UHGV virus genome: UHGV-0110229
Source of the DNA: a virus
Length of the DNA: 53,808 nt
Direction: 5' to 3' (one strand)
The notes below the pieces were generated by a model. It did no database searches, had not been told where the DNA came from, and was given only the letters and a program-made list of their open reading frames with translations. This document shows, piece after piece, positions 9,690 to 50,481 of this stretch (positions within the stretch are counted from its first letter, which is position 1; each line of letters opens with the position of its first letter). Both the position numbers and the translations under genes were made by a program.

Positions 9690-9781
9690 GCTAAAAAACA
9701 CCAAAACGTAAACAGAAAACCATGTTTATCATTTAAATATCAAGTGCTTATAAAATTTTATAAAAAAGTATACAAAATGTG

Positions 9782-17193: not shown

Positions 17194-17290
17194 AATTTAC
17201 AAAATGGCGTCATTGCGTGATGTGGATCACATAATGGCGCTTTTTACCTTGTTCTGACGTATCCATTTTGTATACTTCAAACAAGCAAAA

Positions 17291-22220: not shown

Positions 22221-22330
22221 TGGTATTGCTTTCACGCAATAAATATAAAACGTGATCTACCTCGCAAAATATACGAAATGGCATTGTTTCGGCAGTGCCA
22301 TTTTGTTATATATAAGCCACCGAAAGACGG

Positions 22331-36346: not shown

Positions 36347-36357
36347 AGGTGACAGCT

Positions 36358-37038
36358 ATGATTCATGTTCGAACAGGACAATTTGCGGCTGTGGTCGATG
36401 GCAGGCGGTATGTGTTTAATCCCTGCTTTGCTGCAATGGCTAAGATCGGCAGTGACAGGGAATTGGTCGAATACTTCGCAACTGTGCACGGTGGTAAATA
36501 TCCACAGCGTTTGCCAACGGATCCAGACCTCCGCAATCGCATTATGGCGCGTTGTTATGGTGAGTTAGTGCAAACGTCCATCCACGTCCTGAAATGTTGC
36601 TCAGAATGCGAAATAGGCCAGTTATTGGGCGAATGCAGCTTTACTCCTTCGGGTAAGTTGAGACTGAAACCTGGGTTGATGCCCACCAGCGACGTTATCA
36701 CGCTGGCGCAACACTGCATGTTCCACGGTTTAATTGGTGACGGTCCAGAGGAAGACACGGGCGAAAACCATGATGGCGAGTACAAGCCCACATTCGACAT
36801 CCTCGAATATGTTTACTCCGCCGTTGCTCACCTGGGATTGTCTGAATCTGAAGCATGGGGCATGACAATGACCGGATATAGGGCCGCTGTACGAGCTAAA
36901 ACGCCACCAGACGAAAGAAACGAGAAAGGTAAACCAAACGTTCATATAAATAAACGTGATTATGATGAGCAAATGGAGGCCGCTAAAAGGGTGCTGGAAT
37001 TGATGAAAAAACGCGAGCAAGAAAAAGCCCGGGGTTAG
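36358..37038 (+). CDS. Putative tail assembly chaperone (gpG-position)
   Basis: ATG 36358 with AAGGTGA RBS; sits between major tail and tape measure genes; no frameshift partner identified. Confidence 0.4.
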   Translation: MIHVRTGQFAAVVDGRRYVFNPCFAAMAKIGSDRELVEYFATVHGGKYPQRLPTDPDLRNRIMARCYGELVQTSIHVLKCCSECEIGQLLGECSFTPSGKLRLKPGLMPTSDVITLAQHCMFHGLIGDGPEEDTGENHDGEYKPTFDILEYVYSAVAHLGLSESEAWGMTMTGYRAAVRAKTPPDERNEKGKPNVHINKRDYDEQMEAAKRVLELMKKREQEKARG

Positions 37039-37044
37039 CCGGGC
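37021..37044 (-). terminator. Terminator for reverse-strand moron A
   Basis: GCCCGG-GGTTAG-CCGGGC hairpin with T-run on the minus strand (plus-strand GAAAAA). Confidence 0.45.
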
Positions 37045-37078
37045 GTTATATGTCGATGATGCTTTTTGATAGTGCCCA

Positions 37079-37495
37079 TTATCTGAACCTTACTATTTCA
37101 ATTCTGCCGTTGCCCAAGTCAATGATGGCATGATTTTTTATACCCGCGCCGCCTTCGTTAAATATTCTTTCAGCAAATGCGGCTTTATCAGCGTTACACT
37201 CATTGGCTATTCTGTTTCTTATTTCATCGTTGCCTTCGAATACGACGCCTACAGCAGCCTCCTTCACAAGCCCCCAGTTAAACCATCTTGCGTAAACTGG
37301 TTTACCTTCGAAATGCTTATCAATTGCTTCATAAAAAACCTTAATGGCGGCCGGTTCCTTCTTGAAAATTTTATGGTATTCGGCAACGTTGTTTGCTACT
37401 TCATTGCAGTTTATGTTTATTGCTTCGTTTGCATTGGCGTTGAATGCCATACCAACCATTACCGCCATCACCGCCGCTTTGATTAACCGTTTCAT
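37079..37495 (-). CDS. Secreted/periplasmic moron protein (signal peptide), function unknown
   Basis: 138 aa; N-terminal signal peptide MKRLIKAAVMAVMVGMAFNANA; opposite strand to the tail operon. Confidence 0.5.
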   Translation of the reverse strand: MKRLIKAAVMAVMVGMAFNANANEAININCNEVANNVAEYHKIFKKEPAAIKVFYEAIDKHFEGKPVYARWFNWGLVKEAAVGVVFEGNDEIRNRIANECNADKAAFAERIFNEGGAGIKNHAIIDLGNGRIEIVRFR

Positions 37496-37507
37496 AACCC
37501 ACCCCGC

Positions 37508-37594
37508 TTAGTTTTTATTTTTAAGTGCTTTCAGCATTTCTTCTATAAAGTCGGCATAGTGCTCATGCTCGTTGGGTCGGTAGTAGTTTTTCAT
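37508..37594 (-). CDS. Possible small hydrophilic ORF (28 aa) upstream of the secreted moron protein
   Basis: MKNYYRPNEHEHYADFIEEMLKALKNKN with AAGAGGAT RBS; 12 nt upstream of the moron gene. Confidence 0.25.
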   Translation of the reverse strand: MKNYYRPNEHEHYADFIEEMLKALKNKN

Positions 37595-37751
37595 TTTCTT
37601 ATCCTCTTTTGCTTCCTCCGGTTAATCCGGCCTTTTAAGTCCCTTCGCTCTATCCCTTTTCTTTATCTTCTTTATACAAAATGTACTCGTTGAAGTGAAG
37701 CCATTTTGTATAAAATAGAGACGTGGATCACATTTCGTATGAGGTTAAATC

Positions 37752-40091
37752 ATGGCTACCAGTTTAGGTACAATTTATTACGAAGTCGATGCAAAAACTG
37801 GTCAGCTTCTTGTCGCTCAACGACAGGCAGACCAGGCTTTTGACAGTATAGAACGCGGCGCAAAACGTGCTGACCGCCAGGTAAACACACTGAAGACATC
37901 AATCAAAGCACTGTCCAGGGTTATACATCTGCTACTTGCCGCAGAGGCTGTACGCCAGTTTATTGACATGGCGGAGCAAGCAAAAATGCTTCGCGTAAAA
38001 ATCAAAATGCTTACTGGTGATGCAGAGGTCGCAGGACGTGTTTTCGATGGCCTGAAAGAAATATCAAAAGAAACCGGGCAAAGCCTGAAGGATACTGGCG
38101 AACTATGGCAAGGCCTGGCTATCTCACTGAAGAACACGTCAGCTACGGATGGTCAATTGCTTAACCTGGTTGGCACGATTCAAAAGATGGGGGCGTTAGG
38201 CGGCGCGTCAGCGGAACAGATGTCTAATTCTATGCGCCAGTTCCGCCAGTCTATAGACGGTGGCGTTCTTCGTGCCGAAGAGTTTAACAGTCTGCTTGAA
38301 AACACGCCGACCATCGTACAGACAATGGCCCGCCATATGGGGTTGTCAATGGGTCAGTTCCGCGCCGAAATGCTGGACGGCAAGATCACGGCTGAAAGGA
38401 TGGTTAACGCGATCCAGGCAGCTACACAGGAAACAAACGAGAAGTTTGCACAGTTGCCTCGCACATCCGGCAAGGCTATCAATGAGCTTAAAGTAGAGGT
38501 GATGGGGCTTGTTGAGCAACTGGATGATCTTTTCGGTGTATCAGATGGCGTTGTGTCAGCTATCGACCTAATAACTGGCGGCGTTGAGGGATTAGGTAAA
38601 GGTGCAAAATTCGCCGCAACCTGTTTCAATACACTCAAAACCGCTGGCAGCGAGTTTATAGACATGTTTGACGACGTTGCTGTTAAAGCTGGTGAGGTGG
38701 CGGAAGAGATTATCAGGATGGTAACGCCAATAAAAGCGCTAATGGATGGCTACAAATGGATGAAGGAGATCATTGATAAACGCAAGGAAGAGCTAAACAG
38801 CAATAACGAGAAGAAATTCGGCCCCACCATTGGCAAATTCATGACGTTTAAGAATGACATCGAAAAAGCAACTGCCGCTTATGATGAGTTCATGCAGAAA
38901 CAGGGTGAGGCTAACGATGGCAAGATCACCGGATTCGATCAGCCAGTTGGTAAGCCGAAAAAACCGAAAAAACAAAAGAAATCTGAAGCTGATCGGCTTG
39001 GTGATGAAGGTATAAAAGTGTCCGACCAGTACAACAAGGACGCCGCCGCTATGCGTAAAGCACTGGAGAACGGCAAGGCCATTGATGCTGCATTCGCCCA
39101 GGGAAAAATAACCCTCCTTGAGTACAAGGCCGCGCAGAAAGGGATAGGTAAGGAACTGAAGGACGAATTGGCCCAAATCCCGGTGGAAGAATTGCAAGAC
39201 AAATGGGCGCACATAGTAAGCCCAATGGATCAACTTAAGGGCGAAATTGACCCCATCAAACAGGTGCAGAATGAGTGGGCCGTCAAAAAACAAATGCTGA
39301 TAGACCTGGGCGCTACAGAAGCGCAACAGAAACAGGCGCTTTTGGAATATGAGCAACAGATACGAGATCTGAAGTGGGAACAATGGCAGGCGCAAAGCGA
39401 CACGAATAGCCTAATCGGTGCTTGTGTTAGTGGCCTAAAAGGTGGCATGGGTAATGCGCTCACCGGCCTGTTAAACGGTACTCAATCATTAAGCGAGGTT
39501 TTCGCCAACCTGGGAAGCAGTATCCTCAATACCGTTGGCAACAAACTATCAGAGATTGCCGCTAACTGGATAGCAGATCAATTGATGATGGAAACGCAAA
39601 GCAAGGCTACCCAGGCAAGTACAACTGCTGGCGCTGTGGCGGCGCAAGGTCAGATTGCTGCGGCGGCGGCCCCGGCTGCGGCTGCAACGGCTGCGTCAAC
39701 TGGTGGTAGCTGGGCTGCGGCTGGTGCTGCGGCACTTTCTGCGATCATGTCGCTGGCAACATCAATTTTTGGCGGCGGGCGTTATAATGGTGGTTCTGTA
39801 AATGGTGGCAGCCTGTATCGCGTAGGGGAACACGGGATTCCTGAGTTATTCCAGACGAGCAACGGGCGTCAGTATATGATTCCTGGGGAAAATGGCAGGG
39901 TTATTCCTGGCCGCGATCTCTTCAATGGTGGCGGCATCAATATGCCTGTTAACATCACAGTACAGACCACAAACGGATTTAGCGACGAAGACGGTCGCAG
40001 ACTTGAACAGACGATGGAACGCGTAGCAATGAAAATGATGGCAAGGGAATCGCAACGACCGGGAGGAATGTTGCAACCGCGCCGCAAATAA
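37752..40091 (+). CDS. Tail tape measure protein
   Basis: 779 aa; long helical Q/A/K-rich protein with Gly/Ala-rich hydrophobic stretch near C-terminus; position in tail operon. Confidence 0.8.
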   Translation: MATSLGTIYYEVDAKTGQLLVAQRQADQAFDSIERGAKRADRQVNTLKTSIKALSRVIHLLLAAEAVRQFIDMAEQAKMLRVKIKMLTGDAEVAGRVFDGLKEISKETGQSLKDTGELWQGLAISLKNTSATDGQLLNLVGTIQKMGALGGASAEQMSNSMRQFRQSIDGGVLRAEEFNSLLENTPTIVQTMARHMGLSMGQFRAEMLDGKITAERMVNAIQAATQETNEKFAQLPRTSGKAINELKVEVMGLVEQLDDLFGVSDGVVSAIDLITGGVEGLGKGAKFAATCFNTLKTAGSEFIDMFDDVAVKAGEVAEEIIRMVTPIKALMDGYKWMKEIIDKRKEELNSNNEKKFGPTIGKFMTFKNDIEKATAAYDEFMQKQGEANDGKITGFDQPVGKPKKPKKQKKSEADRLGDEGIKVSDQYNKDAAAMRKALENGKAIDAAFAQGKITLLEYKAAQKGIGKELKDELAQIPVEELQDKWAHIVSPMDQLKGEIDPIKQVQNEWAVKKQMLIDLGATEAQQKQALLEYEQQIRDLKWEQWQAQSDTNSLIGACVSGLKGGMGNALTGLLNGTQSLSEVFANLGSSILNTVGNKLSEIAANWIADQLMMETQSKATQASTTAGAVAAQGQIAAAAAPAAAATAASTGGSWAAAGAAALSAIMSLATSIFGGGRYNGGSVNGGSLYRVGEHGIPELFQTSNGRQYMIPGENGRVIPGRDLFNGGGINMPVNITVQTTNGFSDEDGRRLEQTMERVAMKMMARESQRPGGMLQPRRK

Positions 40092-40097
40092 ACAAAA

Positions 40098-40125
40098 CCC
40101 CGGTACAATGCCGGGGTTATCTTTT
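40098..40125. terminator. Bidirectional rho-independent terminator
   Basis: CCCCGG-TACAATG-CCGGGG flanked by A-run upstream and TTATCTTTT downstream. Confidence 0.6.
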
Positions 40126-40300
40126 AGTTATTCTCAAAACTTGTATATCCTCTTTCAATTTTCCCTCCGTGTACACTTCTGGCAAATACCGCGTCAGTAT
40201 ACCTGAAAAATGGGCATGTATATGTATCCCCTTTACTATCCATATATTTTAGCACCCACGCCATACGTTTTACGTTGCTTTTATTTGCCGGGTTTTTCAT
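40124..40300 (-). CDS. Moron B gene 4, hypothetical (58 aa)
   Basis: MKNPANKSNVKRMAWVLKYMDSKGDTYTCPFF..; GGAGG RBS. Confidence 0.3.
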   Translation of the reverse strand: MKNPANKSNVKRMAWVLKYMDSKGDTYTCPFFRYTDAVFARSVHGGKIERGYTSFENN

Positions 40301-40318
40301 TTTATTTTCCTCCGCAAA

Positions 40319-40411
40319 TCACAATCTTCCGTTTCTTGCTACATAGCTGCGAGCAAACATCACCTGCCAGATGTTCCAGATCTCCCTCCAGGTGAATTTA
40401 TCGTCATCCAT
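40319..40411 (-). CDS. Moron B gene 3, hypothetical (30 aa)
   Basis: MDDDKFTWREIWNIWQVMFARSYVARNGRL; GAGGTGA RBS. Confidence 0.25.
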   Translation of the reverse strand: MDDDKFTWREIWNIWQVMFARSYVARNGRL

Positions 40412-40419
40412 ATTTCACC

Positions 40420-40674
40420 TCATTTATGTGCCCCTTTTACGCCACAGTGGCGGTTGTATTCCAGATGGTCAATAATTAACCACATCTTTAGATCTTCGCT
40501 GAATAACCGCCAATCGGGGTTGATGTCAAATTTATAACCGTAGCCATCGCGTAATTTTTTGGGGTTGGCCTCTTTTTTCAGGAAAGCATTTAATAAAGCC
40601 TTGCCTTTTTTGATGATCCGTTCCTGGGCGTTTTTCTGTGCTTTCAGGTTTTTGCCAATCATTACCAATTTCAT
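40420..40674 (-). CDS. Moron B gene 2, basic 84 aa protein
   Basis: Lys-rich; 20 nt downstream of gene 1. Confidence 0.4.
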   Translation of the reverse strand: MKLVMIGKNLKAQKNAQERIIKKGKALLNAFLKKEANPKKLRDGYGYKFDINPDWRLFSEDLKMWLIIDHLEYNRHCGVKGAHK

Positions 40675-40694
40675 AACTCACCCCACGCAATCAA

Positions 40695-40850
40695 TCAGTT
40701 GACCACTTTCAGGAAGAAATCACGGTATTCATCTTCTTTTGCATTCATCATAAATTGACCGTATTTGAATGCATCATCAAAACCCTTCACAATCGCAACT
40801 TCCACCTGTTCGAATGCTTTGTTTAGCATTACCACTACATAGCGTTCCAT
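40695..40850 (-). CDS. Moron B gene 1, acidic 51 aa protein
   Basis: MERYVVVMLNKAFEQVEVAIVKGFDDAFKYGQFMMNAKEDEYRDFFLKVVN; GGAGG RBS. Confidence 0.3.
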   Translation of the reverse strand: MERYVVVMLNKAFEQVEVAIVKGFDDAFKYGQFMMNAKEDEYRDFFLKVVN

Positions 40851-41600: not shown

Positions 41601-41749
41601 GTCAGTAGTTAATGTAAATCAAACTCATTGGGTGAGCGTGCGCCATATTATTGGCTATCGCCGCCCAATCCCAATCAGCAGCGTGAACGCCAAATACTAT
41701 AAGTCCCATTATTATTAGCGCCAAAACTTCTATTTTCATAATCTGTCAC

Positions 41750-41998
41750 CTATAAGTTATCACGCAGATAATTAACGCCCTTATCAGTGACGAATGAATG
41801 GTTAACCTGGTTTTCATCCGTCATGATGATGAATAACTTTTCCTGTAGGTATTTCGCTTTTGGGTACAGTGTTAAACAGACTTGATACAGTATCCCGCGC
41901 TCAATCAGCAAATCAATAAATTCGTGTTCATGATAACCGATGAGGCGGGCGGCCTGTTTCAACGTGTACACATAATCGCCGTGATTGCGCCGCCCCAT
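41750..41998 (-). CDS. Moron C gene 3, 82 aa protein with possible HTH
   Basis: Segment TLKQAARLIGYHEHEFIDLLIERG resembles an HTH. Confidence 0.4.
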   Translation of the reverse strand: MGRRNHGDYVYTLKQAARLIGYHEHEFIDLLIERGILYQVCLTLYPKAKYLQEKLFIIMTDENQVNHSFVTDKGVNYLRDNL

Positions 41999-42007
41999 GT
42001 TGCCGCC

Positions 42008-42358
42008 TTATTTATCGAATGCGCCCAGGTTATCTATGCAGAAATCTTTTGCCGCTTTTTCGTATTCGCGTTTTGCTTGCGGATCGTCTGCCGGGAAACC
42101 TTTTGCGTGTATTTCACCAGGGCAAGACTGATCCATAGAGTCAGCAAGGTTAACATTGACATTGAAATTGACATCTTTCGGGTTCATCTCTTCCACCTTA
42201 TCCGGTACTTGTACTGGAACAACATAATAATAACGAGCATTAGACCAACAGCGCAGTAATTCACGACCTTCATCACACGCTGATTCATATGTATCAAATA
42301 GCCCCATGCGTTCCCATTCGTATTTATCAGTCCACACGTCTAATCTGTATTTTTCCAT
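42008..42358 (-). CDS. Moron C gene 2, 116 aa hypothetical protein
   Basis: ORF with Cys and aromatic residues; no family recognised. Confidence 0.4.
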   Translation of the reverse strand: MEKYRLDVWTDKYEWERMGLFDTYESACDEGRELLRCWSNARYYYVVPVQVPDKVEEMNPKDVNFNVNVNLADSMDQSCPGEIHAKGFPADDPQAKREYEKAAKDFCIDNLGAFDK

Positions 42359-42373
42359 TTTTTGTTATAACCC

Positions 42374-42559
42374 TCATTTGACAGGTTCGATCCTGTACCC
42401 CAAAACGCGTTCGTCTTCAGCGAGTAAGAGCGCGTCGGTAAGTGCCTCGCCTTCATCTTTATACAGGGCCACAGTCATTTTCCTGCCATCCGCAAGGAAC
42501 ACCGTCAACCTCCACACCTTGTCATCCATTTCACACCTCCGCGCCATTTTGTTAACCAT
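42374..42559 (-). CDS. Moron C gene 1, 61 aa hypothetical protein
   Basis: Start at MVNKMARR (ATG 42559..42557) downstream of promoter with AAGGAAG RBS; track ORF extends to 42616. Confidence 0.4.
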   Translation of the reverse strand: MVNKMARRCEMDDKVWRLTVFLADGRKMTVALYKDEGEALTDALLLAEDERVLGYRIEPVK

Positions 42560-42575
42560 GCTTCCTTTTGAGTAC

Positions 42576-42604
42576 AATATACATATTGTAAAAAACGCGA
42601 TCAA
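42576..42604 (-). promoter_or_regulatory. Sigma70-like promoter for moron C (reverse strand)
   Basis: Minus strand TTGATC-17 nt-TATATT; adjacent direct repeat TGATTTAG x2 at about 42616-42633. Confidence 0.45.
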
Positions 42605-42657
42605 CCGTTTTGGCATGATTTAGCGTGATTTAGATCACAAAATGACAAGGTGATAAA

Positions 42658-50031: not shown

Positions 50032-50056
50032 CCCCGCTTCGCGCGGGGTTTTCTTT
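50032..50056. terminator. Bidirectional rho-independent terminator after J and the lipoprotein gene
   Basis: CCCCGC-TTCGC-GCGGGG with A-run upstream and TTTTCTTTT downstream. Confidence 0.65.
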
Positions 50057-50304
50057 TAGTAGTTAGCTACACAGTTAGAAGGGCTACCGATGCGGCGCAT
50101 GTTGTGATCGAGTTCGTGACACCATTGACCAGTATATGGCAGTTTTTCAGTGTCATAGACTAGATGCCCGCCACCATCATAAACAACATCTTGCGGAATT
50201 ACTCCACTATTCGGCAGGTTATGCAATGCAGCCTCTTTGTCAACAGAGCAACCAGTAAGAGCAACAGCCGCAGCGAACAAAACCACTTTGAACACGTTTT
50301 TCAT
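50056..50304 (-). CDS. Small lipoprotein moron (candidate Cor/Llp-type superinfection exclusion protein)
   Basis: 82 aa; signal peptide with lipobox LTGC; opposite strand between J and stf. Confidence 0.5.
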   Translation of the reverse strand: MKNVFKVVLFAAAVALTGCSVDKEAALHNLPNSGVIPQDVVYDGGGHLVYDTEKLPYTGQWCHELDHNMRRIGSPSNCVANY

Positions 50305-50481
50305 TTTTGAACCCTCATTCTTGTTTGTTAATCCGGTTCACCCGGTGACTTAAATATCCGGCAAAACCACATTTCGTATATTGACACAGATCAACAAATA
50401 CATTTTGTGTAAGCAGAAAATGCAACACAGATCACAAAATGGTAGAATTATTCCGTTAATTAACAAAATGGAGTCATCGAG

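Follow-up and report, generated by a model that had tools for sequence, protein, structure and literature searches.

Envelope-level exclusion proteins of phages include HK97 gp15, Cor, Llp, Lpp, Spackle and SieA. Spackle (Sp) of T4, an exclusion protein of the periplasm, acts as an inhibitor of the tail lysozyme and is small, mainly helical, soluble and provided with a signal peptide. Gene 15 of HK97 was the first moron to be described; its product is an envelope protein that blocks genome entry, a proven case of exclusion (Cumby et al. 2012, summarised in PMC3594210). For the phage group around mEp021, named mEpimmI in PMC11893012, plasmid-expressed Lpp010 was found to exclude LamB-dependent mEp phages (mEp010, mEp044, mEp554) and lambda. 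Sites of exchange between conserved genes are known from the defence hotspots of P2/P4 prophages and satellites (Rousset et al. 2022, cited in PMC11364771). Here we describe a gene for a protein of 138 amino acids (aa), named P138, in the virus genome UHGV-0110229, of which the whole 53,808 nucleotides (nt) are referred to as the window. The window is a temperate siphophage or prophage of Escherichia coli and belongs to the mEp021 group (mEp021/mEp010-like); the P138 gene runs against its late (tail) operon, between a DUF6246 gene and the tape measure gene. We found that this place is a cassette site, at which at least five unrelated cargo types stand behind one promoter region, a finding that is new here, and that P138 is a real coding gene under strong purifying selection.

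Like HK97 gene 15, the P138 gene lies between the tail chaperone and tape measure genes, is an extra gene with its own terminator that is absent from relatives, and has a product that goes to the envelope (as predicted in the case of P138). In contrast, gp15 is a YebO-related inner-membrane protein of 62 aa whose gene has the orientation of the tail genes, whereas P138 is more than twice this length, predicted to be exported by the Sec pathway as a soluble protein, encoded on the opposite strand and devoid of an N-terminal membrane helix beyond its signal peptide. A blastp search with gp15 against all cargoes of the slot, P138 included, gave no match at E<=10. The reverse-strand position between the chaperone-position gene and the tape measure gene, as given in the original prediction, was confirmed by the list of open reading frames (ORFs) and the Pfam matches of both flanks; the role of the DUF6246 gene as tail chaperone is assumed solely from its position. 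Its product is a single protein of 229 aa, assigned to phrog_791 (function unknown in PHROGs). The Lpp lipoproteins (mEp021 gp81 and mEp010 gp116; PMC11893012) come from the same phage group as P138 and are exported, as is predicted for P138; their genes, too, are reverse-strand morons of the tail region, have a bidirectional terminator, and share short upstream motifs with that of P138. They differ in that they carry a lipobox, are encoded beside the host-specificity gene J and fall into types that match receptor use, while P138 has no lipobox, adjoins the tape measure gene and tracks neither receptor nor tape measure type.

The cassette site was followed through 63 slots (50 unique sequences), bounded by the stop codon of the DUF6246 gene and the start of the tape measure gene and taken from complete E. 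coli genomes, contigs obtained by protein lookup and IMG/VR contigs. Among 5,426 complete E. coli genomes 35 contain the leader. P138 is the commonest allele of the slot (26 cases), followed by a VasI-like lipoprotein (16), a pair of membrane proteins designated TM35+TM100 (~13), the secreted families P116-119 (7) and P160-165 (3), and singletons (2). Whatever its family, the first-position cargo is predicted to be exported or membrane-inserted in every slot. The slots of mEp044 and mEp554 hold the membrane proteins of 35 and 100 aa and that of mEp515 a secreted protein of 119 aa, while E. coli prophages carry a secreted protein of 116 or 160-165 aa or a VasI lipoprotein of 203-219 aa; where a second cargo gene is present, it encodes a 100-aa membrane protein, a 124-aa lipoprotein or a 106-aa protein. 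A lipobox was found in the VasI-like, 124-aa and 245-aa proteins. The VasI-like proteins match PF11319 with E-values from 8e-17 to 2e-16, above the Pfam cut-off.

While the cargo changes, its surroundings do not. Gene order (tail tube, DUF6246, reverse-strand gene, tape measure) is kept in the window, mEp010 and mEp021, and about 1 kb around the P138 locus is 93.5% identical to mEp010 and 92.7% to mEp021. In phages with a replaced cargo (mEp044, mEp554, mEp515 and many prophages) the flanks of the slot are still 91-99% identical. This replacement, together with a dip in GC content (0.40 over 37300-37750 vs 0.47-0.51 in the flanking tail genes), strengthens the earlier reading of the gene as a moron. 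Over its first 650 aa, the tape measure protein shows 99% identity among L001 (P138), L003 (TM35+TM100) and L005 (P116+TM100), and 98% between L004 (VasI) and L014 (P137, a 137-aa subtype of P138). Three cargo sets are thus found with 99%-identical tape measure proteins, and a cognate pairing of cargo and tape measure was rejected on these grounds. Between the 138-aa and 137-aa subtypes, synonymous divergence (dS) of the cargo reaches ~2-3, compared with ~0.6 for the flanking genes. The slot resembles the P2/P4 defence hotspots in being a fixed site between conserved genes where unrelated accessory genes turn over faster than the flanks; unlike them, its first-position cargoes are all envelope proteins, none matches a known defence system, and the signal peptide is part of the exchange unit. 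The same observations bear on a role of P138 in the phage's own lytic cycle, either as a periplasmic regulator of lysis timing or in keeping progeny off lysed cells. Periplasmic lysis regulators exist, T4 RI being one, and the gene is embedded in the late (tail) region; however, it opposes the late operon in its direction of transcription, with a terminator of its own, it is distant from the lysis genes, and it is dispensable and interchangeable among phages with 98-99% identical tail genes, so that we consider such a role highly improbable.

About 160 nt upstream of the cargo are conserved across all slots whatever the cargo, and at the 3' end the cargo stop codon lies at most ~30 nt from the GCCCGG terminator stem in all of them. 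The three soluble secreted families (P138, 116-119 aa and 160-165 aa) have a common signal peptide of the form MKRLxK...AFNANA, yet no homology was detected between their mature domains (hhalign probability below 1%). A BLAST clustering of the 116-119-aa with the 160-165-aa family was rejected as a product of this common signal peptide. When the window (P138) is aligned with L005 (P116), the DNA of the signal peptide is 91% identical, and directly past the cleavage site identity falls to the random baseline of ~50%. Because the exchange unit includes the common signal peptide, in-frame swapping at the cleavage site is possible. P138 is one allele of the slot, in which the common promoter region, and in soluble families also the signal peptide, would act as a 5' handle and the terminator as a 3' handle; a small gene present in most slots would belong to the 5' handle. 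Taken further, the slot could be a dedicated periplasmic "plug-in" site, in which promoter, micro-gene and (for soluble cargoes) signal peptide serve as the 5' recombination handle and the terminator as the 3' handle, unrelated mature domains are swapped in frame at the cleavage site so as to diversify an anti-phage or anti-toxin repertoire rapidly, and P138 founds a new fold and family. We regard this extended scheme as doubtful.

Turning to the protein itself, the reverse-strand ORF of 138 aa reported in the original prediction is present exactly as described, with the N-terminus MKRLIKAAVMAVMVGMAFNANA. It corresponds to mEp021_63 and mEp010_97, each annotated as "hypothetical protein". In the paper characterising the mEpimmI group only the repressor and the Lpp lipoproteins were tested, the expression data given there are those of virion proteomics, and a text search of it found no mention of gp63 or gp97 (PMC11893012). 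Homologues of P138 (70-97% identical) form 17 protein clusters, whose members stem exclusively from E. coli or (uncultured) Caudoviricetes, and all occurrences of the family are confined to this slot of this phage group. The alignment contains 61 invariant columns, both cysteines among them, and the ratio of nonsynonymous to synonymous substitution (dN/dS) has a median of 0.08 (pairwise NG86, 36 pairs). Since the conserved clusters, invariant columns and dN/dS show that the P138 gene is real, an antisense ORF of 118 aa (37130..37486, plus strand) is most likely spurious.

Strong purifying selection suits any role that benefits the host, and would therefore also be compatible with a non-defence factor of lysogenic conversion, acting for example in host interaction, in resistance to serum or bile or in the buffering of envelope stress, as in the cases of lambda Bor, Lom and Gifsy-2 SodC. 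Exported proteins with functions of this sort are familiar products of tail-region morons (PMC3594210), and E. coli of the human gut commonly carries this phage group (PMC11893012). However, fast replacement by unrelated exported proteins suits an arms race better than housekeeping, and Pfam, NCBIfam and PDB fold searches revealed no similarity of P138 to any known conversion factor. We therefore judge this explanation improbable.

The signal peptide was described as clear in the original prediction, and all canonical features of Sec export and cleavage by signal peptidase I are indeed present. The n-region (MKRLIK) has a charge of +3, the h-region comprises 12 residues with a mean Kyte-Doolittle value of 2.3, and the c-region NANA places alanine at positions -3 and -1 (A-N-A cleavage motif). 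P138 contains no lipobox ([LVI][ASTVI][GAS]C), no cysteine in the signal peptide and no twin-arginine motif (KR instead of RR), and no hydrophobic or membrane segment was found in the mature protein (maximum 19-aa Kyte-Doolittle value 0.72). Export of P138 via Sec is thus predicted from its sequence. The pre-protein would be exported and cut by signal peptidase I after Ala22, giving a soluble, mainly helical periplasmic protein of 13 kDa in which a disulfide between C30 and C100 is probable. Structure prediction, which had been proposed together with the original description of the gene, yielded an AlphaFold2 model (pLDDT 76, pTM 0.75) with five helices and a C-terminal beta-hairpin.

P138 had no match in Pfam, PHROGs, NCBIfam or PADLOC, and none in the PDB, whether by sequence profile or by fold. 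Specifically, neither the Spackle PHROG nor the VasI family of Pfam (PF11319) was matched. As the fold comparison covered the PDB only, a novel fold is unproven. A profile search against 1.8 billion representatives returned the protein's own cluster, one fragment and three repeat proteins, two of them of EF-hand type; none of the three is regarded as a relative. The two of EF-hand type (P0018 and P0019) matched positions 39-75 of the P138 profile with E-values of 5e-19 and 2e-7; both are long eukaryote-like proteins made up of many EF-hand-type repeats. These E-values are inflated, because 14 repeats sum up a weak similarity, and the resemblance is probably not homology. An EF-hand kinship of P138 was also rejected by inspection of the 12-residue loop, for which Asp, Asn or Glu ligands are expected at positions 1, 3, 5 and 12: in the loop DKHFEGKPVYAR, positions 3 and 12 are not occupied by ligands, and no EF-hand was found by Pfam.

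In being small, predicted to be periplasmic, cysteine-containing and a sequence orphan, P138 is like many immunity proteins. It could therefore be an orphan immunity protein against a toxin that acts in the periplasm, such as an amidase, muramidase or lipase effector of a type VI secretion system or a bacteriocin (e.g. colicin M or pesticin), and give its host a benefit in bacterial competition. The hypervariability of the slot agrees with this idea, as does the type VI secretion-associated VasI domain of a frequent alternative cargo (PF11319, E 2e-16). On the other hand, VasI is not a known immunity protein, P138 shows no similarity in sequence or fold to solved immunity proteins, no toxin gene lies nearby, and all members of the family sit in this phage slot, none of them beside effector genes. 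On balance immunity appears unlikely to us, if somewhat less so than a conversion factor.

Our preferred reading is that the locus is an autonomous leftward moron and that P138 is a periplasmic protein expressed in the lysogen for protection, namely superinfection exclusion of other phages. We put this forward tentatively, as a proposal with a little less than an even chance of being right. The unit would consist of a candidate promoter, an optional gene of 28 codons, the P138 gene and the terminator, in this order, and the exported protein would block a periplasmic step in genome delivery by other phages. Both expression in the lysogen and the target of P138 are what we infer. Exclusion is favoured because of the context, i.e. 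the position shared with HK97 gp15, the kinship of the lipoprotein of the window's other envelope moron with Lpp010, the VasI accessory genes, and a slot that accepts envelope proteins only and turns over fast. A site restricted to envelope proteins with a turnover far above that of its flanks is what an arms-race function predicts. A self-matched target is unlikely because the cargo tracks neither its own tape measure nor the receptor type (PMC11893012); it is more plausible that P138 acts on heterologous phages or on a periplasmic factor of the host. T4 Spackle provides the nearest mechanistic model, a soluble periplasmic blocker of infection, because it is a similar type of protein. It differs from P138 in being an early-expressed product of a lytic phage and not of a prophage, and P138 matches neither its PHROG nor a fold in the PDB.

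The features of the locus are collected in Table 1.

Table 1. Predicted and annotated features of the P138 locus and its two flanking genes (positions in the window; strand given where assigned).
Feature	Position	Strand	Description
DUF6246 gene	36349-37038	+	Pfam E 1.7e-56; 3' of the tail tube gene
Intrinsic terminator (predicted)	37019..37044	-	Stem-loop 37027-37044, U-run 37019-37026; terminator scan and RNA fold
P138 gene	37079..37495	-	138 aa plus stop; ORF list; pre-protein of a predicted soluble periplasmic protein
Mature domain (predicted)	37082..37429	-	116 aa, 13.1 kDa, isoelectric point 6.4, invariant C30 and C100
Signal-peptide coding part (predicted)	37430..37495	-	Codons 1-22, MKRLIKAAVMAVMVGMAFNANA; predicted signal peptidase I cut ANA/NE
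Shine-Dalgarno-like GGGGTGGG of P138	37498..37505	-	Directly 3' of the small-ORF stop; annotated ribosome-binding site in mEp021
Small ORF, 28 aa (MKNYYRPNEHEHYADFIEEMLKALKNKN)	37508..37594	-	Own AGAGGA ribosome-binding site 37602-37607; TAA 37508-37510
Small hairpin CCGG-ATTAA-CCGG in the 5' untranslated region	37618..37630	-	Conserved in alignments
Candidate sigma-70 promoter	37671..37699	-	-35 TTCACT 37694-37699, 17-nt spacer, -10 TATAAA 37671-37676
Inverted repeat TATACAAAATG-N18-CATTTTGTATA	37673..37712	.	Repeat search; overlaps the candidate promoter
GATCACA (TGTGATC on the minus strand) and 12-mer CACATTTCGTAT	37726..37740	.	Conserved; ~-65 from the candidate start
Tape measure gene	37752-40091		PF20155 E 8.7e-51

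The transcription unit in this layout is predicted. At its 3' end, the own terminator claimed for the gene was found on the minus strand (37044-37019), 35 nt 3' of the P138 stop codon; it consists of a GC-rich hairpin with a U-run behind it and has the sequence GCCCGG-CUAACC-CCGGGC and then UUUUUCUU. The stop codon of the DUF6246 gene (37036-37038) sits in the loop, and on the plus strand the T-tail is poor. A minus-strand terminator is annotated at the same site in both mEp021 (TERM_9) and mEp010 (T13). At the 5' end, TTCACT-17-TATAAA appears to be the sole plausible sigma-70 promoter of the moron. Among 43 unique promoter regions its -10 element is conserved and its -35 element variable; a strict consensus scan passed over it because the scan demands T at position 6 of the -10 element. 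The right arm of the inverted repeat was also considered as a plus-strand promoter of the tape measure gene, which was rejected because no acceptable -35 element was seen on inspection.

The inverted repeat that overlaps the candidate promoter is present in all 19 of the slots that were found independently of the repeat motif; in 45 IMG/VR loci its conservation is given by construction, because these loci were retrieved with that repeat pattern. The same half-sites with the same 18-nt spacing are found again at 22273-22306, and the pattern occurs 3 times compared with 0.08 expected. In addition, the half-sites ACAAAATG and CATTTTGT(A)TA recur between genes at 9768-9779, 17195-17275 and 50401-50441. 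This recurrence suggests a common regulator and operator, or a promoter class, in several intergenic regions including those of both envelope morons. The conserved element at 37726..37740 may belong to the moron promoter or to the translation start of the tape measure gene. Its TGTGATC was considered as a CRP half-site, but the second half-site is poor and the assignment was dropped as speculation. We further rejected an RNA pairing of 37619-37627 with 37481-37489, by which translation of the small ORF and P138 would be coupled, since the fold has a z-score of -0.6 and the complementarity is not conserved elsewhere. A search of the leader region for known RNA families returned none.

A possible leader ORF of 28 aa had also been noted upstream of P138. 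The ORF exists and is conserved, appearing in 44 of the 63 slots as a peptide of 27-29 aa with the invariant core YADFIEEMLKALK. Most of its variation is synonymous, with a ratio of nonsynonymous to synonymous polymorphism (pN/pS) of ~0.14 (from non-independent pairs), and in the window it ends 12 nt before the P138 start codon. The leader part of the suggestion did not hold in that the ORF is not obligatory: in L015-L018 it is missing and the promoter is joined straight to the ribosome-binding site of the cargo. In the 137-aa subtype ~60 extra bases lie between the small ORF and the cargo. Because it is under purifying selection yet missing in some slots, we regard it as an optional genuine gene instead of an obligatory leader. 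No family match was obtained for it in Pfam, PADLOC and a further search. A minus-strand small gene is annotated only in mEp515 (mEp515_84), while in mEp010 (mEp010_98, L001 3166-3267), mEp044 and MagusPhagus a plus-strand ORF is called across the region. Published annotations probably miss a real small gene here.

A second envelope moron of the window encodes a lipoprotein (50056-50304, minus strand) and is flanked by the J gene and the next tail-fibre gene, with its upstream region at 50305-50481. The lipoprotein is 97.5% identical to mEp010 gp116 (Lpp010, type C). Several motifs had been said to be shared between this upstream region and that of P138, and the comparison bears this out. The 256-nt upstream region of P138 and 50305-50481 share an exact 12-mer, CACATTTCGTAT, at 37729-37740 and 50368-50379, and 15 distinct 8-mers; for random windows taken from this genome the average is 2.3 shared 8-mers, and 15 are reached in 0.6% of them. 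The two regions are not collinear. A sequence related to the small hairpin of the P138 leader, CCGGATTAAC, is likewise present in the 5' region of the lipoprotein moron. A small ORF was not found there, as the search gave only implausible ORFs with GTG or TTG starts. A 14-mer, TCCGGTTAATCCGG, found at ~20.4 kb is part of a coding region and probably a chance occurrence.

Some further observations concern the alternative cargoes and the remaining tail region. The TM35+TM100 pair (L003 2967-3074 and 2654-2956; further loci L005, L008, L011 and L015) consists of a single-helix peptide and a protein that combines two membrane helices with a conserved cytoplasmic tail (...DLDEARCRFAAYK). In type it resembles small inner-membrane exclusion proteins, without similarity to HK97 gp15. 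VasI lipoprotein genes (L004 2375-3034, L016 1506-2165 and L018 1547-2158 in related prophages; further loci L070 and L071) are frequent phage accessory genes and are also present in P2-like, Klebsiella, Pasteurella and Brucella phages. In other temperate phages they occupy accessory positions that are expressed during lysogeny; in Brucella phage BiPBO1, for example, the VasI-like gene lies directly 3' of the repressor gene. The tail operon of the window is broken by two more reverse-strand islands, one after the tape measure gene (40124-40850) and one after a minor tail gene (41602-42616). In related prophages, a ParE-like toxin and an ANT/antirepressor-like protein are among the products of the corresponding islands.

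P138 is an ordinary kind of element, a tail-region moron for an exported protein, with an interesting modular architecture. Envelope-level protection is thinly covered in defence catalogues, and neither P138 nor the small ORF nor any of six other cargoes matched PADLOC. Should P138 and the other cargoes of the slot prove to block phage genome entry or periplasmic toxins, they would lengthen a short list by several new soluble periplasmic effectors. The exchange of mature domains in frame behind a common signal peptide would, if true, be a case of modular evolution of exported phage proteins. It would also provide a genomic rule by which more such genes can be sought, namely a search between DUF6246 and tape measure genes. 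As prophages of this group are common in human-gut E. coli (PMC11893012), such genes could alter the host range of therapeutic phages.

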